Shown here piece by piece: positions 20,152 through 59,280 of a DNA stretch of 64,000 nucleotides. This DNA comes from Myxococcota bacterium (GTDB taxonomy: Bacteria > Myxococcota_A > UBA9160 > UBA4427). How positions within the stretch are numbered: the first letter of the stretch is position 1; each line of letters opens with the position of its first letter. Position numbers and translations under genes: made by a program. The notes beneath the pieces are model-generated. The model was not told the DNA's origin. It searched no databases and saw only the letters and a program-made list of their open reading frames with translations. Location of the stretch: assembly GCA_965250285.1 (NCBI GenBank), contig OZ252299.1, positions 2,496,001 through 2,560,000 of the forward strand. Reading direction: 5' to 3'.

Positions 20152-20915
20152 GCTGGCCTCCGAGAAGCGGGGCGTGCCGCGGAAGGCCGGAACGTAGCGC
20201 TAGGCGTCGTCCTCGGAAGCCGCTTCTTCGTCGACGTCGAAGGCACTCGAGGCGACCGGCGCGAGATGCGGCCCCAACTACGTCTCCGTCTCGGCGGGCC
20301 TCGTCGAAGGCGTGGACAGCGCCATCTGGCCGACGTCGTTCGAGAGCGGCGCGGACATGTCGAGCCGACCGACGACGACCGCGACGTCGTACATCATGAT
20401 GACTCTGGCGACCCGCCAGGAGACGTCACGGACCAGAGCTCACTCACCCGATTCGAGAGCCGACACGGCGACCGCACCATCGCGAAGCGCCTCGGACTGA
20501 CCGACAAGACCATCGCCAAGGCAATCGCATGCGTTCTGCGCCGCCTCGCCGAATCTGCATGAGGCGCGGCCGTCTTGATGCGAACATGGGCTCACGCGCA
20601 CCGCTCGTGGCGAATGCGGCGGCTCGGAGATTCTAACCGCCGTCCGAGTCGGGCGGGCCGGCCCGCATCGGGGGCCACCCACAGGGTTGAGCCGATGATC
20701 GGGTGCGGACCCGGAGTCAGAAACGTGGAGATGTCGGTCGGGTATGCGCCAAAGAGCGCACACCACGGCACCAATCTCCTCTTCCGATGAGATGCGGCAC
20801 ATGGCGGTGCACGAGTCGTTCCCTACTGTTCGACGTCGGCCTGGCGCCGTCATGCGCGCTCCTCCGCCCAGGTGGGCTCGCATGATTCGAATCCGCGTAG
20901 AGGGCAGAGGCAACC

Positions 20916-36157: not shown

Positions 36158-36186
36158 TGGTGGAGGCGGCGGGAATCGAACCCGCG
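36158..36186 (-). repeat. ssrA: tmRNA (ssrA) 3'-end fragment, att core copy 2
   Basis: TGGTGGAGGCGGCGGGAATCGAACCCGCG, identical to 31693-31721. Confidence 0.85.
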
Positions 36187-40801: not shown

Positions 40802-42595
40802 GTGCTGTCGATCAAGAAGCTCAAGACGGGCTGCGAGCACTACTACGTTGGCCTGCAGGTCGAGGACTACTACCTCAAGGGAGGCGAACCGCCTGGCACT
40901 CTTGTGGGCATCTACGCGGGTCCCGTCACTCGGCCGCTCCTTCGAAGCCTGCTACTCGGCTTCGACCCCGAAACTGGTGATGGCCTGGTACAGAACGCCG
41001 GCAGCAAGGGTCGCATCCCGGGGTACGACCTCACGGTGTCTGCCCCAAAGTCAGTCTCTGTCGCCGCGGCCTTGGCGCCCCCCGAACTTCGCGATCAGAT
41101 CCGGGAAGCACATTCGCAATCCGTCGTACACATGCTCGGTGTTGCCGAAGCGATCGCAGGACGGTCTCGAATGGGGAAGGCTGGCCGGCGTGTGGTACCA
41201 GCGCGGCTCACGTTCGCGATATTCGAGCACGGGACCGCCCGGCGCGTCGACAACCACCTCCCAGATCCTCAACTCCACACTCATTGCGTGGCACCAAACG
41301 TGGCGCTCCGCCCGGATGGCTCCACCGGCGCGTTCGTATCGAAGTGCTTCTACGAACACCAGCTTCTTCTCACGTCGATCTACCGCTATCAGCTGGCGCA
41401 GCGACTTGGGAAGCTTGGCTTCGATGTCCTGCCGCTCGACAAGCAGCGCGGATTCCGACTCACCTGTATTCCAATCGAGCTCGAGCGTCAGTTCTCTAAG
41501 AGGCGCAAGGAGATCAAGCGAGAGCTCGCTCGACAGGGAGTCTCTGGTCCGGCTGCATCCGAAAAAGCGGCTCTCGCCACGCGGCTTTCGAAAGTCAAGC
41601 CACCGCCTCGAATCGAGCTGCTCGCGAACTGGAAGGCCCAAGCCGACGCGCTGGGCCATGAGATTCATTGGCCTGGTTCTGAACCCGAAGACACGCAGCC
41701 TCGCCGTGACCAACCCACCCCGAACCAGCGGAGGCTCATCAGCGCAATGATTAAGCGCGAAGCGAACCTCCTCTCCGAGTACAAGCCGCACTTCGATCGC
41801 GAAGAGCTGCTCTGTCGAGCCTACGACAAGGCCATCGGCGATCCGATGTCGACTACCGACGTAGCGTGGGCAGTCAATAGCTTCCTGAATGGACCCGCAG
41901 TCGTCCGGATCACGGACGAGAATGGCAGAGAGTTCTACCGGACCTCGGCTGCTCAAAAGAGCCGCAGACAGCTACGAGAAGTCCTGCAACGAGAAGCAGG
42001 AGACCGCGCCGGCCGAGTGCTCTGCCTGCGGTCTGACTCGACCCGCTGGGCCGCGTCGTATGAAATCGCCCGATCTCTCCGCCGTGAGGGGACACACGTC
42101 GTTCTTGTCACCAGGTCCAAGCGCGGCGCCGAAGCCCTCGCGCGCGAGTCGCGGCGAGAACGGGACGACGAGACGAAGGTCCGAGGCTCGGAGGTCGAGG
42201 CCACGACCCTCTCCAAGTTCCAATCGAACCTTGATCGCGGCCACTTTCACAGAGGGCCCCTTCCTCCGGCGTGGCTGCGAGATGCAGCCCGAGCGCTGGG
42301 CGCCATCACAGAGCGCGCGAATCGCTACCTGGCATGGTCTTCCGATCGCCGCCCTCTCGAGATCGGGCGCAGGAGCGTCGTCCTCGTAGATGAAGCTCAC
42401 AAGCTCACTGCGAGCGAGATCAGCGCCCTGATCGATGCGACGCACCGACACGGCGCACGTGTCGTCTTCCTCGGTAGGGAGCAGGGCGTCTACGGCGACG
42501 TCGCCCTCCCCCGGCTCCGCCCGCGGCCGGAGCAAGAACTTCCGCGAGCGCTTGCAGACAGCTTGAAGCGCGAGCCTGAGCCGGAGGTCTCGTAG
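40802..42595 (+). CDS. mobF: MobF (TrwC/TraI-like) relaxase with degenerate helicase tail
   Basis: HYY...EDYY, DLTVSAPKSVS, FEHGTAR..DPQLHTH, FSKRRKEI. Confidence 0.92.
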   Translation: MLSIKKLKTGCEHYYVGLQVEDYYLKGGEPPGTLVGIYAGPVTRPLLRSLLLGFDPETGDGLVQNAGSKGRIPGYDLTVSAPKSVSVAAALAPPELRDQIREAHSQSVVHMLGVAEAIAGRSRMGKAGRRVVPARLTFAIFEHGTARRVDNHLPDPQLHTHCVAPNVALRPDGSTGAFVSKCFYEHQLLLTSIYRYQLAQRLGKLGFDVLPLDKQRGFRLTCIPIELERQFSKRRKEIKRELARQGVSGPAASEKAALATRLSKVKPPPRIELLANWKAQADALGHEIHWPGSEPEDTQPRRDQPTPNQRRLISAMIKREANLLSEYKPHFDREELLCRAYDKAIGDPMSTTDVAWAVNSFLNGPAVVRITDENGREFYRTSAAQKSRRQLREVLQREAGDRAGRVLCLRSDSTRWAASYEIARSLRREGTHVVLVTRSKRGAEALARESRRERDDETKVRGSEVEATTLSKFQSNLDRGHFHRGPLPPAWLRDAARALGAITERANRYLAWSSDRRPLEIGRRSVVLVDEAHKLTASEISALIDATHRHGARVVFLGREQGVYGDVALPRLRPRPEQELPRALADSLKREPEPEVS

Positions 42596-42597
42596 CG

Positions 42598-44511
42598 ATG
42601 CGCAAGCTGCGAATCACGCTCGGTGTCGCCACCGGGGTCATGGCTGCAGTCGCCATTGGCGCCTTTCTGTTCCTGCTCTACGCGGAGTCTCCAACAGGCC
42701 AGGAACGCGACCTCGCGCGCCAGCTGGCCCAGGGCGCGGCCATCGCGTCCCTCGCCACAGGACTCCTGCTCGAGATCGTCCTCCCCCGGACTCCTCCGCA
42801 GAGTCCGTCGCTCTACGGGCGACACTGGATTGGCGGCGCTTCCGATCGCCTGGCTGCAGACGATTGGCGAGACCGTCTCAGGGCGGTTCGGAGCCGCGAC
42901 CGCAACTATCCCGTTCACGTCGGACCTGTTTGGGTGCCCGATTCGGTCGGACGCTTCGGCATCTTGCTTCTCGGCTCACAGGGTTCAGGCAAGACCCTGA
43001 GCCTGCGCCTCCTGATCCAACACCTGGTCCACACCCTCGTGTCCGGTGGCCTCGTCGCTCGAATCGTCATCAGCGACCCCAAGTCACGGACAAGCGACTA
43101 CAACCTCCTCAACTCCACGGTCGAGATGGTGGAGCGCTACACGGCCGCAGTCGCCGAGCCCCGTCCGTGCCCCATCTACGTTCTGAGCCCGTTCGACTCG
43201 CGCTGTTCCAACCCGGTTCTTTCGGACCTCGTCCAGCAGCAAAAGCACGCCCAGGCTCTCGCCGAGTCCTGGATTCGCGGAGTGCCGGCTGGGGGAGACG
43301 GCATCTACTGGCGAAACGCTGCACGCCTCGTCCTCGCTGCGGTGATGTTCGCGTTCGCGAAGCTCTCGGACGAAGATGAGTTCTGGGACTTCAGGGACGT
43401 ACTCCTCGCGATTCGCAGCCCCGAAGTCTTGACGCATATCTTGGATCAGCTTGCCGAGACCCGAGGCCTCGCGCAGGTCTTCCTCCATCTCTCCGAGCGA
43501 CAGGCCGCGTACGTATGCGGAACTCTCATTGCGTACCTGCGCGAATTCGAGCCGCTGGCGGCCGGCTGGCACCAAGCAGTCGGATGGGAGCATGCCCCGA
43601 AGCGAGTGGAGCTTCGGGCTTGGGCAGAGGGAAGAACTCCCGGAATCGTCTACCTGGGTGGCGACGACGACAACGAAGAGCTGCTCGGCAGAATGTGGAG
43701 TGGTCTGGTTCAGCGAATGCTCAGCCTGAACATGCAGCACCCACGAGGCGAGACCTGGTACGTGCTCGACGAGGCAGGGACTCTCGAGAGCGGAAACAAG
43801 CGCGACGAACCCTCGATTCTGTCGACTCCTCTATCGCAGGCGCGCCAGAAAGGCATTCGGTTCGCGCTTGCCTACCAGTCGTTCCTGCAGCTGAAGGTGA
43901 ACTACGGAGAGGACCAGGCGCACCAGCTGTCCAGCCACCTCGAGAACATCGTCGTGTTCAAGCAGAGTGGAACGGCGGCTGCCGAAGCTGCGAGCAAGCT
44001 CCTCGGCGAGATGGAGATCCTCCACGAGGTTGAGAACGAGTCCGAGCAGTGGGGGCCCGGCGATATCGGCTTGCAGCGCACCGGCACCGGGACCAGTACG
44101 AGCCGAACGCACGCACTCACCAGGATCTTCCAGCCTGGAGAACTGCAGGATCTCCCAAGGTGCTCGTTCGAAGGTGGAATGACTGCAGTCGTTTCGATGC
44201 CCGAGGTCGGCCGATTCCGCGCCCGGTTGAACGGGCGAAAACTTCGCGAACGACTTCTCCCGCATAGCTCGCACTGCGAGACCTACGAGGACTGGCCGAA
44301 TCCCCTTGAGCTCAAGCCGTGGGATGCCAACGACTACTTGCGGCTTGGTATTCCACAGCCGCCGCACCTGGACCCCGCCGAAGTACCGACAACGCTCGAT
44401 CCTTCGGAGCGCAAGTCGTTCGACGAACTAGTTCGCGAATACGCACCGGAGGCCTACCAGTACCTGGCCGACCACGATGAGTTCGAAGATCAAGACGGAG
44501 AAAACCAATGA
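42598..44511 (+). CDS. Type IV coupling protein (TraD/TrwB-like)
   Basis: Two N-terminal TMs, Walker A GSQGSGKT, DPK, Walker B YVLDEAG, ARQKG, YQSFLQLKVNYG. Confidence 0.88.
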   Translation: MRKLRITLGVATGVMAAVAIGAFLFLLYAESPTGQERDLARQLAQGAAIASLATGLLLEIVLPRTPPQSPSLYGRHWIGGASDRLAADDWRDRLRAVRSRDRNYPVHVGPVWVPDSVGRFGILLLGSQGSGKTLSLRLLIQHLVHTLVSGGLVARIVISDPKSRTSDYNLLNSTVEMVERYTAAVAEPRPCPIYVLSPFDSRCSNPVLSDLVQQQKHAQALAESWIRGVPAGGDGIYWRNAARLVLAAVMFAFAKLSDEDEFWDFRDVLLAIRSPEVLTHILDQLAETRGLAQVFLHLSERQAAYVCGTLIAYLREFEPLAAGWHQAVGWEHAPKRVELRAWAEGRTPGIVYLGGDDDNEELLGRMWSGLVQRMLSLNMQHPRGETWYVLDEAGTLESGNKRDEPSILSTPLSQARQKGIRFALAYQSFLQLKVNYGEDQAHQLSSHLENIVVFKQSGTAAAEAASKLLGEMEILHEVENESEQWGPGDIGLQRTGTGTSTSRTHALTRIFQPGELQDLPRCSFEGGMTAVVSMPEVGRFRARLNGRKLRERLLPHSSHCETYEDWPNPLELKPWDANDYLRLGIPQPPHLDPAEVPTTLDPSERKSFDELVREYAPEAYQYLADHDEFEDQDGENQ

Positions 44512-44854: not shown

Positions 44855-46126
44855 ATGTCTACTCACGAGAATGCAGTTGGCAGTGTCGCGATTCGCCACG
44901 AGCCGGCAGATGTTCCGAGGCTCATCGTCGGATCTGCACTCGCCAGAAGAGCCCAGCAAATCATCCATCGCCGCGAACAGCGCGAACGCGCCGTTCACGC
45001 CCGGGTCCACGCACGACTGGCGAAGCTGCCGGAGCCGGAGAGCTGGAACGAGCTTGCTGGGGTCTGGCGCTCTGGAATTCGCGCTTCGTTTCACGAGATG
45101 CGCGAGGACATTGCACCTTCCGCACGTACAGCCGCCGAGTCAGTTCGGGCCGCTGACAGCCATCTTCGAATGCATGGCTACGCGGCTGAACCAGCGACAA
45201 CCCAACGGGGCCGAGCCTTCAAGCGCTTCGCGCTGATCGCAGTGCTCGATTTCTTTCTTACGCTCTTCCTGTTCCGGGACCATGCACCAGACCTCCTGAC
45301 GGCCTTCGGCAGTTCTCTCCTCTTCGTTGTGGTGGCCGCTGTCCTCCCCGGAATTCTTGGCATCCTGGATGCTCATGCTCGGGTGGGCGCCAGGAATGGG
45401 TTGAGCAAGGCTGCTGTTCGAGCGGGTTGGGTAGCAGCGGTTCTCGCGGGCCAGGTCGTCGTCCTCTGGTTCCGCGGGGCGGGTCTTGCGGAGGTTGCCC
45501 CAGAGCAGCTTCTGTTCCTTGACCCGCCCGTTGATCTGGCGTCGCTCGGGGCTCTTCTGGTCGGGCTGGCCTGCGGCGCCTACAGCTTCCTCGAGGGCTG
45601 GCAGACGGTCGGGGTTGACCCGGAATGGGCTCGCCTCAAGGCCGCGAGGGAGCAAGCGGTTCGCCAGCACGAGCGGGTCTTCGCTGGTCAGCTTGCTCAA
45701 CGTTCGGAGGAGGCCCGCCAGCTTCTCAGTGAGTACGCCGACTTCCGCGCTGATCATGAGAGATACGGCCGAAAGGTCGATGCGCAGGTCGCCAGCCTAG
45801 AGAACGCCGTTGGCACGACGAACGCCCTGGTCGAACGGCAGCAGAGGTCTCTGTTGACCCGACTGCTCGAGTACCCGGCCGGCTTTCAAAATGCCGCAGC
45901 GCGGCCTGCCGGGGTGGCTCCCGAGCTCGTTCCGATTGGCGTCACCAGGGCGCTGAGCGAGATGAGGTCAAGGACGGAGGCGCGCCTAGCCAGCGCCGAC
46001 GCTGCTCGCCTGTCGCGCGAACAGCTCGACGCGCTCCTCGCAGGTGCTGAGCGCGATGTGAGGGCGGCGATCGAGGCGTTTGCAGGGCTGAAGGACCGAG
46101 TTACCGCCCAAGAAAGGAGTCGGTGA
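44855..46126 (+). CDS. Membrane protein (4 TM) with long coiled-coil flanks
   Basis: AGGAG RBS; central hydrophobic cluster, Ala/Arg/Glu-rich helical ends. Confidence 0.7.
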   Translation: MSTHENAVGSVAIRHEPADVPRLIVGSALARRAQQIIHRREQRERAVHARVHARLAKLPEPESWNELAGVWRSGIRASFHEMREDIAPSARTAAESVRAADSHLRMHGYAAEPATTQRGRAFKRFALIAVLDFFLTLFLFRDHAPDLLTAFGSSLLFVVVAAVLPGILGILDAHARVGARNGLSKAAVRAGWVAAVLAGQVVVLWFRGAGLAEVAPEQLLFLDPPVDLASLGALLVGLACGAYSFLEGWQTVGVDPEWARLKAAREQAVRQHERVFAGQLAQRSEEARQLLSEYADFRADHERYGRKVDAQVASLENAVGTTNALVERQQRSLLTRLLEYPAGFQNAAARPAGVAPELVPIGVTRALSEMRSRTEARLASADAARLSREQLDALLAGAERDVRAAIEAFAGLKDRVTAQERSR

Positions 46127-46890
46127 TGCGCTTCCAACTTCTCGGGAAGAGGCTTCGCAAGACGGTCAGACGACTTGCGGCGGCCGCAACGAACGACGCC
46201 GAAGGGGCCGCAGCGTCGATCGGAATCGGTCTGGTCATTGTTCTCGGAACGGTTCTGCTGCTCGCCGGACGCACGTCCGGTGTAGATGAGCGCGGTTGTC
46301 CGCCCGAAGTCCCGACCACCATCTCGGTCTTGGTCGATGCGACGGACCAGCTGCCCGAACACCGAGCGATCGGTCAGTGGCTTCGGTCTCGGTTCGCCTC
46401 TGCGCCTGCGGGAGCACGAATCCGGATTGCACCGCTGAATGGCGTGGGACCCGCAGCGTTTCGCCCGGTCTTTGATCGCTGCCTGCCGGGAGAATCCCGA
46501 ACGACGAATTCGAGAGTGGCCGAGCGAGAACGGGAACGAGTAATCGAATCAGCCTGGGCAGCAGTCGAAGATGTACTCCGACAAGCGGGCTCACTTTCGG
46601 AATCGAGGATTCTCGAGTCCGCCATACGCGCTGCGCGGGAGACTCCGGCTGGCGAGGTACTCGTCGTCACCGATGGATTGGAGAACAGCAGCTTGTACCG
46701 CTCGTACGGTTCGAACTCGGGAAAGGAGCTCCCGGAAGAACCACTCGTTGACGAGCTTCGACCTGTATCCCTGAGAATCGTCGTCGTCGTCCGAAACGGA
46801 CCGCTGATGGCGAGGCAGGAGCGGGCGATTCGGGAGTTCTGGTCTCCGGCGGTCTCATCTTTGCCCAGAGCCTCTATCGAGAGACTGTAG
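46123..46890 (+). CDS. Membrane-anchored vWA-like protein
   Basis: TM anchor; ISVLVDATD, SRILESAI, VLVVTDGLENS (MIDAS-like). Confidence 0.6.
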   Translation: MMRFQLLGKRLRKTVRRLAAAATNDAEGAAASIGIGLVIVLGTVLLLAGRTSGVDERGCPPEVPTTISVLVDATDQLPEHRAIGQWLRSRFASAPAGARIRIAPLNGVGPAAFRPVFDRCLPGESRTTNSRVAERERERVIESAWAAVEDVLRQAGSLSESRILESAIRAARETPAGEVLVVTDGLENSSLYRSYGSNSGKELPEEPLVDELRPVSLRIVVVVRNGPLMARQERAIREFWSPAVSSLPRASIERL

Positions 46891-52399: not shown

Positions 52400-52995
52400 T
52401 CAGTCGCTCGTCACATCCTCGATTGCCTTCGCTAGCCGCTCCTGTCTCTCGTCGAGGAACTCATCAAAGCGGCCCTCTCGCAAGGTCGAGCCCTGCCCAC
52501 CCGGAAGGAGATGGGATTCGAGCACCTTGTCGAGTCGGTCGGCACCCAGTTCGGCCTCGATCTCAGCCAGGTAGACCACCGGTGCCTTCTTCCCGATTCG
52601 AATGTTCGTCTCCTTGTCAATCAGTGTCCGATTGAGAATGCAATCCCGAAGCGTTGCCGTGACCTTGACATCAGCATCCACCAAGTACCCCTTCGGAAAG
52701 ACGTGGTGGTCGTCGATCTTCTTCTCGAGAACCATGCTGGCCGTTATGCGATTGCCGGAGTGGAAGTCCCGAGCCTCGCTTCGAAGAATGAGGGCAATGC
52801 ATCCCCGATAAACGCCCCTCTGCCGAGGTGTCGTCTCTCGAAGCACATCCGGCTCAAACGTGAAGCTCTGGACACTCTCGGGCTCGTCGCCTCCCGCGAA
52901 CCAGTTCGTGAGCTCCGTGTAGTCCTTGACTGCCTGCGAGTTCGGGGCGTTCTCGTACGACTGACCGAACACCGAGCACCAGAACCACCGCTTCG
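52400..52995 (-). pseudogene. C-terminal part of a GmrSD/DUF262-type restriction endonuclease
   Basis: KRWFWCSVFG..Y, ARDF, DDHHVFPK, ILNRTLI...TNI.IG..AP..Y; N-terminus replaced by DUF499 sequence. Confidence 0.75.
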
Positions 52996-54443
52996 TCAAA
53001 GAGCTTGTCGTTGCGGGCGCTCGCGATAAGCCTGGCTTGTGGGTTCTCCTCCTCGCGGAAAATGAGACGGTCCCCATCCTGATGAATATTGAAGCTGTTC
53101 TCTACGATTGCGGCGAGCTCCGCCTCAAAGGCGTTGTCGTCGACCGGCTTGTCTCTGGTTATATCGATGTGTAGAACCTGCGGAACGGCCCCCGCGAGGT
53201 TCTCGGCGACAAGGGAGCGCAGCCACAGCGCGCCGATGATTTCTTCAAGATGAGGAACTGTCTGGTCAGCATCCTTCACCGCGTCGCGCACCGCTTCCAG
53301 GTTCCGCTGGGCCTTCTCGCGAAGCTTCTGGTGGTGCTGGTTCGCGACCGAGTCGATGAGGGCGGTAATCCCGCTGGCGTCGTCCTCAATACGGAAGTCC
53401 GCGGCCGTGATCAGCGGTTTTGCCTGGCCGTGCTTCTTGTACAGCTGCGCGAGGATGCGAATTAGGTCACGGGTTTCCTGCGCTGCTGTTGCGACCAGCA
53501 CATGGTCTTCAAGTAGCTGCATCAAGTGAGGGGCGAAGGGCCACGTCTCAGCGAAGTCCTGCTTGGTGCGCTCATGCTCGCTAGGCGGAATCTCGGCGAG
53601 GCGGAGATACTCAGAAACATGTGCTTCGGTCAACGTCGAGATTTGGTCCGCGGGCACTTGGATACGGTTCTCGAACAGCCTGTGAAGCAACAAGCGCTGG
53701 CGATCCCGTTTAGCAGTCGGCCCTTTGAAATCGACAAGGATGGGACTGACCCGTTGAATCTGCTGAAAGGCGTCGGTGCTGCCGTTCCGCACCGAGACCA
53801 CAAGCACGAGTAGTTCGGGATGTTCCTTCGCGATTTCCGAGAGAATCTGGACGAAGTTGAAGGCCCAGTTGCGATAGGGGGTTCGCTTGGTCTGCGACAG
53901 CCCGTCGAACCACGTCTGATACTCATCTAGAATAAGGGCGCACGGTGTGTGCCTAAAGAGCTCAAGCAGCAGCTTTTCGCCGGGGACGTCCGTCTGCTTG
54001 TCGCCTTGCCCCATCCACATACCGCGGACGTGAGCGCCGTGCGGATGCCTGTCGAAGAGTAAATCCCACAAGAACTTGTAACTCTGCTTGTGAAGACTCT
54101 CGCTGATCACGCACATTGAGTCTCGCAAGGGCAAGGCGGCGATCTGCGGGTTGGCTAGGCGTTCACTCCATTCACTCAGCCAAGAGCGCGTGGCGTCCGG
54201 CTCGTTGAAGGCGTGATCGAGCACGGCCATCAAGTGGGATTTACCCTGGCCCCGCTCACCAATCATGACCAATGGACGACCCTGGCTGGGACCCACTGCC
54301 TCGATGGATTTGAGAACGTCGCCGGAGGGGTAGGTGATCTCCAAGAACTCGGTGGCGGCCATCTTCTTGGCCGTATCGAGCTCGATAGCGGTGCCTTTGA
54401 GACGGCGTCCCCGGAACTCTTCTCGCAGCTTGAGGTCAAGCAT
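52996..54443 (-). pseudogene. DUF499-family AAA ATPase, 3'-truncated
   Basis: MLDLKLREEF, FLEITYPS, GERGQGKSH, LILDE, WPFAP, QETRDLIRILA; runs out of frame into the DUF262 remnant (stop 52854). Confidence 0.75.
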
Positions 54444-54494: not shown

Positions 54495-54704
54495 TCATAC
54501 CTTGCGGGCCTCCTGTTGTGCGTTCGCCGTCTTCTGAGCTTCTACCCAGGTCTGGATGTCCTCCGGGCGGAAGCGCCAAGCGCCTGCCACCTTGAATCCT
54601 GGCAGCTCGCGGCGCTGGGCGAGGCGGTAGACCGTCTTCTCATTGACATTGAGATAGGCAGCTACCTCGCGAACGGTCATGGCGGGAGGAGTGGAGTCCG
54701 TCAT
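54495..54704 (-). CDS. Excisionase-like HTH protein
   Basis: MTVREVAAYLNVNEKTVYRLAQRRELPGFKVAGAWRF. Confidence 0.88.
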   Translation of the reverse strand: MTDSTPPAMTVREVAAYLNVNEKTVYRLAQRRELPGFKVAGAWRFRPEDIQTWVEAQKTANAQQEARKV

Positions 54705-54790: not shown

Positions 54791-55480
54791 CTATCTGGCG
54801 AGATGCCCCCCGGGGCTGTGGCTCGGTGGAGGAGAAAAGTGCGGCGGCCACGGTCTGCAAGCGCGAATGCAGTCCGGACACAACCGGCTCAGACCCGCCG
54901 CCTGCCGCCGGTCATTGACGCGCCGAAGAAGGGCCAGGAACTGGCGGCGCACAGGGGCATATACCTGCCACCGCGACGACTGCCTCCAGAACTCCGCCCG
55001 AAGCCGCTCCGTAGAGCGGCGGAGCGCGATGCACTCGAATTGCCGCTTGAGGTTGCGGTACGTCTCCTCGTCGAGACGAACACTCGCACGTTCCCGATGC
55101 TCGCCCCTGCGCATGGCCGAACCGTCGCGCCGCAGAGCGACCGAGTAGCCATGCGCCCGAATCGGCGTCTTTCGCAGGTCTCGAACCCGCTCCTTGGCAT
55201 CAACGGCCAGAACGAAATCCGGCGAAGTCGCCATCAAGACCCACGCCCTCCCGTGGCGGAAGTAGTGCGCGTTCGAGAGGCCGCGAGCTTTCCGGTAGGC
55301 GCGCTGCCTACGCGTCTTCCGAACGCCGTACTTCGACAGGATCTTGTCGTCGACCCGCTCGACCGCTTTTCGCTCGGGCACTTCGCCCTGAACGAAGAAC
55401 CGGTACCCGCATTGAGCCAGCACGACGACGCGCTGCACAAAGCCGGCCGGCGTCGCGCACTCATATCGGTATGGCTCCAT
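54791..55480 (-). CDS. Arg-rich basic hypothetical protein (229 aa), putative nucleic-acid binder
   Basis: GGAG RBS; GFVQ, GY.FFV.G.VP..K...VD.KI..KY, RK.RG.SN.HY.R; directly downstream of the structured region. Confidence 0.75.
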   Translation of the reverse strand: MEPYRYECATPAGFVQRVVVLAQCGYRFFVQGEVPERKAVERVDDKILSKYGVRKTRRQRAYRKARGLSNAHYFRHGRAWVLMATSPDFVLAVDAKERVRDLRKTPIRAHGYSVALRRDGSAMRRGEHRERASVRLDEETYRNLKRQFECIALRRSTERLRAEFWRQSSRWQVYAPVRRQFLALLRRVNDRRQAAGLSRLCPDCIRACRPWPPHFSPPPSHSPGGHLAR

Positions 55481-55499
55481 CTCCGCGCTCGCTCTCTCT

Positions 55500-56830
55500 G
55501 CTCTGCAAGATGCAGGGTTTCTCTCGGCGAACCCTGCGAAGACCGCACTCCAACCTCCTTTCTGCAGGCGTCGCTGCGCCTACTATGTCCCTCCTGGCCG
55601 TTCCCCAACTCATGGCTGTGCCATTCTCGCGGTCAGGAAACAAGGAAACCTGCCACCGCACTCGCGGTGTCCCTTCCTTCGCCAAAGTCGCCGTGAACCG
55701 GATGAGAGCTGCCAAGCTCCCAGCCGCTTCGCGTCCTGTCAGAAACCAATCCGCCTCGGGCCCCTGCCCGAGAGGCTCTTCCAGGCCAGCGAGGGGCCTC
55801 GCGCACTCAGGCGCGAGGCCTCACCCCGCTAGCCACGTCTGTGGTCGCGTCACTCGCGAGCCACCTCGGCGCTTTCGTTCGTCGCATCGCGTTCGGCTAC
55901 CACCCCGAACGCACGAAGGGCTCCACGACTGGCAGCCGTGTCGCCCCGGAGGCCAAAGCCTCCCTGTCCTACTTGCGCCCCGCTCCCACACTTCAGACCA
56001 CCTCGGATGACGTACCGAGCGCGGCGAGGAACCACCCTCGCTCATCTGAAGTGCTTCCCCGATTAGCAGTCGAGGTCTGATCAGAACGCAGGTCCTGGTG
56101 GTGAGCACATACGCGCGTCGGACATCCGTGTCGAGACCGGCCAGGGCCTCGACATTCTCGGGAACGCGTTCCCGAGCTTCGGGGTACGGACATAGAGGCT
56201 CCCCCTATGCCGGATGGCCGATTGTCCCAGTCTGCCTAGATAGCCGGTCGATTCCGGCCCAGCTCCTGCATTCCATTACGGGCAAGCCCTCGCGGGCCTC
56301 TTACACCGTTGAGCTCTTCGCGCGACGCACTTAGTGAAGGAGCACGCGTGCTCCGTTTTCATGCGTCGCCCGCGTTGTCTGCGCGGTACAGGGCCTCACG
56401 ACCGCTGTAGCTCCCGGCGCCCGCAGCGTAGACAGGTCTCAGAGAGACCTCGCCCCCGCTGGCTGGATTCGAGGGCCGCGTTTGCGGTCCCTCCCACCAG
56501 CTTCCTCAACCGCGGCCCTCGATCGCTCCCGAACGGAGCAAGCTCGAGGGTATGTCTCGGTCGCCCACGTCCCTGTGCGAACTGTTGAATGGGATAGAAG
56601 CTACGGATTGGACCTCGATCGAGGTGATTACTCGTAGCAGCCTCCCTCGCGCACGGACAAGCCAGTCTCCCGGCATCCGGCGCTAAGCGGCAAGAAGTTT
56701 CGCGGATGGTTAGCCCGCGCCCTTAGCCAAGCTGGTAGGGCTTGGTTTACCAGGTACTTCTCCACAGACGGAAGAGCCGAAGCAGACGCGTATCGCGCTG
56801 CCTGGCGTGAGGTCTATCCAACCTCTCAAC
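55500..56830 (-). ncRNA. Candidate large (~1.3 kb) highly structured non-coding RNA
   Basis: No credible CDS; more than 20 adjacent hairpins/multiloops; stem mismatches repeatedly A-C on + (G-U on -); promoter-like sequence at the 5' end. Confidence 0.6.
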
Positions 56831-57037: not shown

Positions 57038-57835
57038 ATGACAATGACCATCGCATTCGCAAACGAGAAGGGAGGCGTCGCAAAGACCGCCACATGCGTG
57101 AACCTGGCGGGGTGCCTTCTCGAGCAAGGCTTCCGCTGCCTGATCGTCGACTTCGACCCACAGGGAAGCGCTGGCGAGCATCTCGGCATCGCTTCCAGTG
57201 GGGAGGAACTTCTCAAAGCCCTGTCTGGCGAGCAGTCGATCGCCGACCAGGTATGCATGACCAAGAGCGGCATCGATCTCGTTCCGAGCGGTCCCTACCT
57301 GCATGCGCTCCTCGAGATGCCGCGGCGAGCCCGAGAGCGCCTCCTCGAACGCGCTCTGGGTGAACTTCCCTGTGAGACCTGGGACTTCATCCTTCTCGAC
57401 AGTCCGGCCAGAAACGATCTATTGGCCGACAACGTTCTGGTCGCGGCCGACGTCGTCGTCGTCCCCGTCGAGTGCAAGAATCAGTCGCTATCGCCCCTTC
57501 TGCGGCTTCTCGACACCGTCGACCAGGTGCAGAGTGAGTTCGGCTCACCTCGGGGCATCCTCGGCATCCTGCCGACCCGCTACCGAGCTACGACCAGCAT
57601 GAGCAAGGACTTCGTTCGCGTGCTCCGGAGCCAACTCGGTGACATCACGTTCGACACGGTGATTCGAGAGAGCACGAAGGTGGCGGAGGCGCCGAGGAAG
57701 AGCCTTCCCGTCTGCGCCTACGCTCCAGAGAGTCCTGGCGCCACCGACTACAAGACCTTCTGCGAAGAATTCCTGAGCCGCGTTGGCGAGTTCAGCATCC
57801 AATACGCTGGAGCTGCTGATGGAACAGGAATCTAA
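57038..57835 (+). CDS. parA: ParA/Soj family ATPase
   Basis: NEKGGVAKTAT, DFDPQG, LLDSP, VVVPVE, IRESTKVAEAP. Confidence 0.93.
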   Translation: MTMTIAFANEKGGVAKTATCVNLAGCLLEQGFRCLIVDFDPQGSAGEHLGIASSGEELLKALSGEQSIADQVCMTKSGIDLVPSGPYLHALLEMPRRARERLLERALGELPCETWDFILLDSPARNDLLADNVLVAADVVVVPVECKNQSLSPLLRLLDTVDQVQSEFGSPRGILGILPTRYRATTSMSKDFVRVLRSQLGDITFDTVIRESTKVAEAPRKSLPVCAYAPESPGATDYKTFCEEFLSRVGEFSIQYAGAADGTGI

Positions 57836-58151
57836 GGAATCTACCGTTGCGTTCGGCGCCATTGCGGACAACCTGCGCCGACGGAACCTGACGCCCGCGC
57901 GAAACCGAGCCGCCCCGAAGGCCGGGCCGCGGAAGAAGCGCGTCTCGTTCCATCTGACGGAGGACCTCGCAGAGCGCCTCCGGAATGCTGTCTACCACCT
58001 GTCCGGGCCACCACACCGGCTCACGATGGCCGCTCTCGCCGAGTCAGCCCTGCATCGCGAGGTCTCGCGCCTCGAGAAGGAAGCCAACGAGGGGGAGCGG
58101 TTCCCCAGCAGATCGGAGGAGCTCTCGGGAGGTCGAGGTGTCGGACGGTGA
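57819..58151 (+). CDS. ParG-like ribbon-helix-helix partition partner
   Basis: Overlaps parA; KKRVSFHLTEDLAERLRNAVY...TMAALAESAL. Confidence 0.65.
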   Translation: MEQESKESTVAFGAIADNLRRRNLTPARNRAAPKAGPRKKRVSFHLTEDLAERLRNAVYHLSGPPHRLTMAALAESALHREVSRLEKEANEGERFPSRSEELSGGRGVGR

Positions 58152-58152
58152 G

Positions 58153-59280
58153 ATGAGCCCGCCATCAGGTCGAGAGTTCCCGAGACGTCCACTGCTCTCC
58201 GTTGAGAAGCAGGTGGAAACGAACATCGAGACAGGTCGCTCCCAGACTCGAATGTTCGTCAAGCTCTACTTCGAGGCCCGAGACTCCGGTCTGCTGGCGG
58301 AGATGCCTCCCGAGCTGTGGCACACGCTTTGCTGCCTCGCCACGTACATGAACGAGGAGGGGCTCTGCTTTCCAGGCCAGCAGCGGATGGCACGGGAGCT
58401 CGGGATCAGCAGGCAGCAGCTGAACTCCAGGCTGAAACGCCTGGCCGCTTTCCGGTTCCAAGGGCGTCCGGTTATCCGAGTTTGGAAGGAGCGTAGGCGC
58501 GCGTCCGGGCGTTGGGCTCGGAACATCTACCGGGTCATGCCCGTGACCGGTCTGTCGATCTTCGGCTCGAACGCCGTGGACGGCGCCGCTGGCGGCTCGT
58601 CCGAGTCCGTGTCAAGTGGAGACGACACGGAGACCATGTCACCTCCACCCGACGCGGCCGGGCCTGACATGAACCAGAGCCATTGTTTGAACGAGAACAC
58701 AACGTGTGTTCGTTCAAACAACGTTCCTACGGGCGCATTGCTGCAGCTCTTCCACACGCGTCTCGGAAGACCGAATCACAAGCCCAGCCCGAGAGAGCAC
58801 ACGCAGGCCCGGAGATTGATTCTGGCCCACGGACCTGAGCGAGCGCGTCTGGTGGTAGAGCATGCTCTTCAGGCCGCGACACGGACGAACTTCCGGATGA
58901 GGTCGTTCGGGGCGGTGCTCCGCTACGTGGACGAAGCGCTAGCCGAGCTGGCGGCCCTAGAGTCGAAGAAGTCGAGGCAGCACGCCGAACGGCGGCGAGA
59001 GGCTGAGAAGCTTCTCCATCGCAACTATCTCGATTGGAAGCGTTCCGAGATCGCTCGCCTGCGCGCGAACTTGCCAGCGGCCGAAGCAGATGAACTCGGC
59101 CGCGCTGCACGCGACCGAGTGATTCGCGAGCACGGAGGGCAGCCCCCGGTCGGCTTCGAGACTTTGGTACGGATCGTCGTGGAAGAGGCGATATCGCGCT
59201 CAAATTCCCTTCCGGACTTCGACACGTGGAAGATGCAAGGCGCCCCAGCGAATACAGCCCTCGCGCGTGTCGCGCGTTGA
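58153..59280 (+). CDS. HTH-domain putative replication initiator
   Basis: LCCLATYMNEEGLCFPGQQRMARELGISR...L..L ... RNIY, phage/plasmid Rep-like wHTH. Confidence 0.65.
   Translation: MSPPSGREFPRRPLLSVEKQVETNIETGRSQTRMFVKLYFEARDSGLLAEMPPELWHTLCCLATYMNEEGLCFPGQQRMARELGISRQQLNSRLKRLAAFRFQGRPVIRVWKERRRASGRWARNIYRVMPVTGLSIFGSNAVDGAAGGSSESVSSGDDTETMSPPPDAAGPDMNQSHCLNENTTCVRSNNVPTGALLQLFHTRLGRPNHKPSPREHTQARRLILAHGPERARLVVEHALQAATRTNFRMRSFGAVLRYVDEALAELAALESKKSRQHAERRREAEKLLHRNYLDWKRSEIARLRANLPAAEADELGRAARDRVIREHGGQPPVGFETLVRIVVEEAISRSNSLPDFDTWKMQGAPANTALARVAR

Follow-up and report, generated by a model that had tools for sequence, protein, structure and literature searches.

AcpG, encoded beside a circularly permuted group II ribozyme, is predicted to adopt a palm-thumb fold like that of group II intron reverse transcriptases

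The name AcpG (TTHC007) was given to an ORF linked to circularly permuted (CP) group II RNAs (Roth, Weinberg, Vanderschuren, Murdock, Breaker 2021, iScience, PMC8637638), and in the accessible text of that study no homology of AcpG to any known protein class was detected. Both the nature of AcpG and the reason why CP ribozymes splice in vitro without a spliced form being seen in cells were left open there (PMC8637638, accessible text). The CP RNA is treated as protein-free in the available parts of PMC8637638, PMC13717195 and the Cte-1 preprint bioRxiv 10.64898/2025.12.30.696962, and the words "AcpG" and "maturase" are both absent from the accessible text of the preprint. No publication tying AcpG to reverse transcriptases (RTs) was found in a search that extended to the available part of PMC13717195, the earlier Cte-1 cryo-EM papers cited therein lying outside its reach.

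A pair of this kind was identified in the window, the whole stretch of 64,000 nucleotides that was analysed, and its features are collected in Table 1. The initial annotation had treated the protein and the RNA upstream of it as elements without a known kind; they are identified as AcpG and a CP group II intron, respectively, in the sense of the accessible text of PMC8637638.

Table 1. Positions of the RNA, acpG and neighbouring genes in the window
Feature	Position	Strand	Basis or remark
P1 hairpin, loop CCUACCA	56720..56754	-	
P2 hairpin, loop CUAACCA	56701..56719	-	Same loop as Gdi-1 in Roth Data S1
D5: CGC triad 56682-56680, GAGA loop, 2-nt bulge; atypical extra bulged U 56653	56649..56685	-	RF00029
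D6, bulged branch A 56595, 3' splice site AU 56590-56589	56589..56646	-	
Internal linker, predicted 22-nt circular exon	56567..56588	-	
5' splice site GGGCG, D1 start	56562..56566	-	
AUX and EBS1 (56193-56188)	56188..56200	-	6/6 pairs with IBS1 56572-56567; delta is U
D2 hairpin, loop GUGGUU	56024..56041	-	Complements P2 loop; candidate P2-D2 pseudoknot
J2/3 AGC (candidate gamma A 55984 pairing with 3' terminal U) and D3 base with AAGUA E-loop strand	55969..55987	-	
D3 terminal hairpin, loop UGGUAG	55891..55910	-	Complements P1 loop; candidate pseudoknot
3' part of split D4/leader	55481..55729	-	Split-D4 concept from PMC13717195 (accessible part)
Leader hairpin, 31 nt before ATG	55512..55537	-	Same hairpin in L002, L007; compensated form in L003
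acpG, basic AcpG-family protein	54791..55480	-	Family HMM; predicted RT palm and thumb; motif mapping inferred
parA, divergent from RNA	57038..57835	+	AAA_31, CbiA
Small ParG-like ORF and HTH_36 protein (probably Rep-like)	57783..59280	+	ParG label by eye, no Pfam match
TrwC (MOBF) relaxase and TrwB/TraD coupling protein	40802..44511	+	Host island context

The acpG ORF runs on the minus strand from the ATG at 55480 to 54791 and encodes 229 aa, including 42 Arg and 8 Lys against 22 Asp/Glu (pI 11.15), in agreement with the Arg/Lys-rich ORF of 229 aa first noticed here. The five motifs listed with it were all located, GYRFFV at residues 25-30, KYG at 50-52, HYFRHG at 72-77, HGYSV at 110-114 and YAPVRRQ at 174-180. 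Since the median pI across the AcpG-like family is 10.2, the basic charge is a trait of the family. That the gene is real is indicated by its homologues, which number 33 when clustered at 90% and form 1,645 clusters at 50% (E<=0.001). The gap of about 30 nt between the last hairpin and the ORF was likewise confirmed, a strong hairpin on the same strand (55537-55512) ending 31 nt before the ATG; by analogy with D4a, this hairpin is a candidate AcpG-binding or autoregulatory site. The GGAG that had been taken for a ribosome-binding site, however, lies at 55484-55481 and directly touches the ATG, and therefore is not a normally spaced one. No sigma-70 promoter or convincing terminator was found.

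Membership of the AcpG family was examined with an HMM built from 179 homologues of the window ORF. This HMM matched the Gluconacetobacter (Gdi) ORF labelled TTHC007 in Data S1 of Roth et al. (E 2e-12 among 848 ORFs) and all of the eight proteobacterial plasmid homologues (E 9e-8 to 7e-21). Gluconacetobacter AcpG in turn retrieved Thermus loci (E 1e-6 to 5e-5) that were also retrieved by TTHC007, and the direct match between the family and TTHC007 was weak (E 0.018-0.022). By the HMM together with this transitive chain, the window ORF is, at the level of sequence, a distant member of the AcpG family. Searches of Pfam, NCBIfam and PDB sequences gave no match for the family of the window ORF. 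Longer fused or intermediate forms of AcpG (600-2000 aa) were absent among 7,992 candidates, which is weak evidence, and no RT domain was detected in 13 longer or distant AcpG members.

The RNA upstream of acpG is assigned by its sequence signals to the CP group II introns and is, on that assignment, a ribozyme-class RNA. Rfam model RF00029 identified group II D5-D6 at 56685-56589, the 5' end of the ORF-free stretch, with 33.7 bits (E 3e-4), a match under the 40-bit cut-off. Along the minus strand the order is P1, P2, D5, D6, linker, D1, D2, D3 and D4, with D5/D6 leading D1-D4. The CP class is marked by NU ... GGGCG splice sites 15-86 nt apart, and the linker of the window RNA is 22 nt in length. 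The same splice-site rules, when applied to the published Gdi-1, gave a circle of 74 nt together with a G-C delta pair, in line with the numbering in the accessible part of PMC13717195. Two of the five RNA stretches were more structured than expected by chance, 56560-56261 (z -5.6) and 55960-55661 (z -5.3), the remaining three giving z of -1.8, -2.2 and -0.7, against -0.7 to -1.4 for three coding controls. The motif of J2/3 and the E-loop was also found in L004, L005, L008, L009b, L011, L014, L024 and L026 among the homologous loci (L numbers), and equivalents of the D3 loop in L011, L014, L024 and L027; the partners proposed in Table 1 for the P1, P2, D2 and D3 loops are assigned by complementarity and are putative. 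For the D4 stem, the 5' strand at 55729-55723 may pair with 56691-56685, a tentative assignment with a second candidate, and the search for D4 (omega) pairing gave several candidates, all at chance level. No RT ORF was found within or near the CP RNA. Readings of the locus as a retron, a DGR, a canonical intron or an RNA-guided nuclease were rejected, there being no RT and no nuclease domain and D5 being at the 5' end.

Splicing is predicted to yield a 22-nt circle, together with a branched product that is T-shaped. The RNA element was detected also in DNA contigs of four further runs, and no spliced joint was found in four RNA runs, of which the cover was thin (7 short low-depth contigs). In run X6 a variant was observed with six changes clustered in P1/P2 (56699-56756), at least three of which keep or improve the pairing.

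The association of RNA and acpG was surveyed over a total of 18 loci, of which L001 and L007, near copies of the window element, and L002, L003 and L028, with short upstream DNA, were set aside. Among the 13 homologous loci with enough flank, which include the near duplicates L004 and L005, the RNA was found upstream and on the same strand in 12, with D5-D6-linker-GGGC at 0.8-2.2 kb. As Rfam missed most CP D5s, a D5 profile was made for this survey, seeded from eight of these loci and to that extent circular. Scores for D5 were weak at L011 and L012, yet splice signals and EBS were present at both; no CP RNA was found at L025, where the gene is a half gene, or, outside this set, at L066. The named relatives are plasmids of a planctomycete, two cyanobacteria, Bacillus and Planococcus. 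The proposal of a conserved RNA-protein pair thus held when the gene neighbourhoods of homologues were compared as it had suggested: with RNA upstream in 12 of 13 loci, the homologues do not generally lack a long structured region at that place. On Calothrix plasmid5, two near-identical units of CP D5, D6 and 5' splice site (L009:635 and L009:2786) lie 2.1 kb apart, both upstream of a single acpG, the first unit apparently being truncated. AcpG was found on E. coli plasmids of about 30 kb, NZ_CP045715.1 (L063), which carries a divergent CP RNA, and nine others. A single CRISPR-DR14-like repeat (39 bits, under the cut-off) was seen at L011:7802-7830 on a small Bacillus plasmid.

In seven of the eight proteobacterial plasmid loci, the RNA lies on the strand opposite to acpG, and the RNA of these loci therefore cannot be a leader. 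This bears on another proposal of the initial annotation, now highly improbable, in which the pair serves the island as a module for replication or maintenance, or the ORF is controlled by the RNA as a long leader. The par/rep genes near the pair, here and in L008, L009, L010, L012, L061, L065, L066 and L067, and the position of the RNA near the origin of pPNAP05 (PMC8637638, accessible text) would agree with a replicon module, but such proximity is common in these loci and circumstantial, the island has Rep-like and ParA genes of its own, and a role in replication found no support. A long regulatory leader or a plain scaffold is at odds with the full set of ribozyme signals carried by the RNA, which places it in the ribozyme class.

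The EBS and IBS sequences varied together among the loci. In 11 loci, 54 of 66 cognate EBS-IBS pairs were formed where permutation gave a mean of 41, and none of 20,000 permutations reached 54, in a test for which the EBS hairpins were chosen through the AUX motif with hand-tuned rules, L004, L005, L023 and L009a were omitted as having no EBS located by rule, and L024 (2/6), L008 and L026 (4/6) were included. The delta-delta' position, which involves the first base of the 3' exon, is paired in eight of the 11 loci and is U-U in the window copy, and this pair is described only as a possible extra one in the accessible text of PMC8637638. The window D5 has the triad, the loop and the 2-nt bulge, and differs from its homologues by an extra bulged U beside the triad and by G-C where they have the G-U of the triad. 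Its letters are identical in four DNA runs and one RNA run, and the oddity is therefore not an assembly error. Because of the extra U, the G-C in place of G-U and the U-U at delta-delta', the window copy may be impaired. Variation of other kinds was observed elsewhere: the distance from D5 to acpG is 2.2 kb at L024:1816-4020 and L026:2096-4267, with poor EBS-IBS fit at the splice site called; the CP RNAs at L004:2360, L005:1677 and L027:2190 have a D6 larger by >100 nt; and at L004/L005 the 5' site is GGGCAG and the EBS hairpin is a simple one with perfect complementarity, not of the AUX type.

The host genome is a single contig of 6.25 Mb (95% complete) with one acpG and one D5, and no RT was detectable in it with PF00078, TIGR04416 or our own maturase HMM. 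The pair is located in an island of lower GC together with a TrwC relaxase, a coupling protein, parA, a Rep-like HTH protein and a tyrosine integrase, between one copy of the tmRNA 3' end at window position 36158 and another at 85897, beyond the end of the window. A total of four such copies of 29-33 bp (window-relative 31689, 36158, 85897 and 106496) were found upstream of the tmRNA gene (109432-109799), a series of islands integrated in tandem at the tmRNA; at 20399 a fall in GC coincides with an 18-bp piece of this gene. The distribution of the pair is patchy, four of 401 genomes in the phylum and six of 225 in the class, the host genome counted. The minus-strand region downstream of acpG (52400-54443 and 54495-54704) contains an excisionase-like gene with HTH_17 and a gene for a DUF499 AAA ATPase, the latter appearing shortened (529 aa against a 1,024-position model) and having a fragment in a different frame after it. 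At 44855-46890, immediately after the coupling protein and an H-NS gene, a membrane protein and a vWA-like protein (by eye, no Pfam match) are encoded.

The nature of AcpG was approached through its predicted structure. The AlphaFold model of the window AcpG (pLDDT 95.3, pTM 0.89) shows a small mixed sheet flanked by helices, together with a beta-hairpin and three helices. A search of ESM Atlas, based on the Atlas's own model, retrieved group II RT/maturase clusters (TM 0.70-0.72 by query, ~220 residues). In Foldseek, retron and group II RTs ranked first at a best E of 1.4e-3, a weak value, and the first 29 among the matches listed were bacterial RTs or viral RdRps. The top ranks in VIA-align were five maturase RNP chains, 8T2R, 8T2S, 8FLI, 6ME0 and 8H2H (Z 9.5-9.8). 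In a structure scan against 48,161 chains, the top six were bacterial RTs and only four chains, all RTs, had Z>=8; the best of all the 48,161 was 6ME0 (Z 9.6, rmsd 3.9, 185 residues aligned), a Z of 9-10 being only modestly above background, and Prp8 came below the RTs (Z 7-8). For the Gdi-type AcpG model, three maturases ranked top (Z 9.3, 9.1 and 8.7), and Foldseek returned nothing under E 0.2; this model is not independent, because its alignment contained 62 rows of the window ORF's family.

Comparison at the level of profiles was also made. Alignment of the AcpG profile to 30 maturases was collinear, GY.FYV.G falling on motif A, QYLR..RFVL on RYADD and PI..GYS on F.FLG[YF], and continued into the thumb helices, with the fingers and the GxPQG segment skipped. 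This alignment, made by hhalign, was not significant (E 0.1), the full-length score under other settings was no better than that of shuffles (19/30 as high), and only two hand-picked segments exceeded all 30 shuffles. The assignment of AcpG residues to RT motifs is accordingly putative. Asp was found at the motif A site in three of 179 rows, and Asp-Asp at motif C in two of 179. The remark that the ORF lacks RT motifs remains valid for the sequence, since the RT0-RT7 blocks with YADD are absent and none of 150 AcpG members matched a Pfam or NCBIfam RT model (PF00078, PF08388 or TIGR04416), but it fails at the level of the fold. These observations altogether lead to the prediction that AcpG is composed of a palm and a thumb like those of group II intron RTs, apparently without the fingers or the catalytic aspartates, and this modelled fold points to an RNA-binding protein. 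Because the profile alignment is not significant, RT ancestry rests on the predicted structure and the context; derivation from a maturase in particular leans on the neighbouring RNA, because the scores of DGR, G2L4 and DRT RTs come to within about 1-2 Z of those of the maturases. That the likeness to RTs arose by chance, AcpG being a ferredoxin-like sheet plus a three-helix bundle in an unrelated nucleic-acid-binding protein of mobile elements, is considered very unlikely: the identity of 8-15%, the missing significance of the profile match and the Foldseek E above 1e-3 would allow it, but unrelated structures matched one domain only, both domains were aligned in order over 160-185 residues with RTs only, and the neighbour is a group II-type ribozyme.

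A role of AcpG as a helper of ribozyme folding or splicing is likely because of its shrunken RT shape, the apparent loss of catalytic residues and the adjacent ribozyme. AcpG is probably a polymerase-dead mini-maturase that binds the CP RNA and aids branching and back-splicing in the cell. The RNA and the acpG ORF would be carried on one transcript, and Q180, N189, R192 and R209 of the conserved basic thumb/C-terminal part would grip the branch helix of D6 as well as the EBS-IBS/5' splice site. The thumb/DBD of the maturase holds D6 and the 5' splice site in a canonical intron, and mutations abolish branching (PMC10733145, accessible text); AcpG would retain the thumb/DBD-like part that promotes branching there. 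CP RNAs have a split D4 with a 3' part devoid of an ORF (PMC13717195, accessible part). If an ordinary intron were opened within the D4 loop, at a point behind its ORF, this ORF would come to lie at the position of acpG. As acpG would then occupy the place of the intron-encoded protein, the order of RNA followed by acpG may be the ancestral layout. The pair would be unable to copy itself and would spread by riding plasmids and islands. On a wider proposal, of which the chances are rated a little below even, CP RNAs would not be protein-free, AcpG would be their lost intron-encoded protein, cut down to a palm-thumb clamp of 230 aa, the clade with RNA followed by acpG would preserve the ancestral D4 position, and RNA and AcpG would form a domesticated RT-less RNP enzyme, a bacterial parallel of MatK/Prp8, employed by plasmids and islands, possibly for the cutting of nucleic acids in trans. 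Some observations count against a mini-maturase. Maturases bind D4a through RT0/fingers, the part that AcpG does not have. Five CP RNAs splice in vitro without protein (PMC8637638, accessible text). AUX was proposed to take the role of the maturase, and some genomes with CP RNA reportedly have no acpG (PMC8637638 and PMC13717195, accessible parts).

The differences in EBS sequences among loci and the patchy occurrence of the pair on plasmids and islands would also suit a targeting RNP of AcpG and the branched RNA. Once the circle had been released, the emptied EBS would pair with foreign or host RNA or DNA and D5 would cut by reverse splicing, with the palm-thumb of AcpG gripping the target duplex; splicing would only arm the complex, which would serve as a weapon in defence or plasmid competition. 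This reading is judged unlikely. Maturase thumbs work in target recognition as well, which counts for such an RNP. Cleavage in trans or defence was raised as a possibility by Roth et al. (PMC8637638, accessible text). A 6-nt EBS, however, gives little specificity, and no target, nuclease domain or RT was found.

Splicing of CP RNAs in vitro without protein, set against the failure to detect a spliced form in P. naphthalenivorans (PMC8637638, accessible text), may be taken to mean that AcpG, though of maturase descent, has become a repressor or gate of splicing or a regulator of its own transcript, while the RNA splices unaided. The plasmid of P. naphthalenivorans carries an AcpG homologue, and the conserved hairpin just before the acpG start codon would agree with such a repressor. 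This reading is held to be quite unlikely, since branching in canonical introns is promoted by the very part kept in AcpG (PMC10733145, accessible text) and the divergent proteobacterial layouts are unfit for simple cis autoregulation.

Under the mini-maturase reading, which is preferred, the maturase-like fold provides AcpG with a testable role and with residues to mutate. No other RT was detectable in the host, which is therefore a clean test case in spite of the odd D5. If the reading is true, AcpG would be, to our knowledge, the smallest maturase-type splicing factor; it would also offer a bacterial model for an RT turned into a pure splicing scaffold like Prp8, and possibly a helper for making circular RNA in cells.

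With the CP group II ribozymes described so far ("T-large" RNA, PMC8637638; Gdi-1, PMC13717195; Cte-1, bioRxiv 10.64898/2025.12.30.696962; accessible parts), the window RNA shares the P1-P2-D5-D6-linker-D1-D2-D3-D4 order, the internal reversed splice sites, AUX-EBS, two loop-loop pseudoknots (putative in the window RNA) and the lack of an internal ORF, but is different from them with respect to its length (about 1.05-1.3 kb against about 0.9 kb), the CGC triad, the IIB-like end of D6, the extra bulged U of D5 and the U-U at delta-delta'. The window protein is similar to AcpG/TTHC007 in being basic, about 200-260 aa in size and located beside a CP group II RNA on mobile DNA (PMC8637638, accessible text). 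It belongs, however, to a distant subfamily with about 17% identity to a Gdi-type member, its gene lies downstream of the RNA on the same strand instead of being divergent, and an RT palm-thumb fold is predicted for it where no homology was reported in the accessible text of PMC8637638. As for the group II RT/maturases (8T2R, 8T2S, 6ME0, 8FLI, 8H2H; TIGR04416), AcpG resembles these in the predicted palm and three-helix thumb in the same order, the strongly basic nature and the coding position at the D4 end of a group II-type RNA, but is half their size, shows 8-13% identity to them and has no RT0/fingers, GxPQG, YADD, motif A aspartate or endonuclease; by its sequence AcpG is not filed as an intron-encoded protein. 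Plant MatK is an RT-dead splicing maturase. Retention of an RT-derived palm-thumb for splicing after loss of the polymerase would be common to AcpG, MatK and Prp8, but the latter two are eukaryotic, larger and associated with conventional introns, whereas AcpG would be bacterial and stand-alone and would act with a permuted ribozyme. The RNA and the protein of the window are new members of two known kinds, and the new point, as far as searched, is the structural identity proposed for AcpG.
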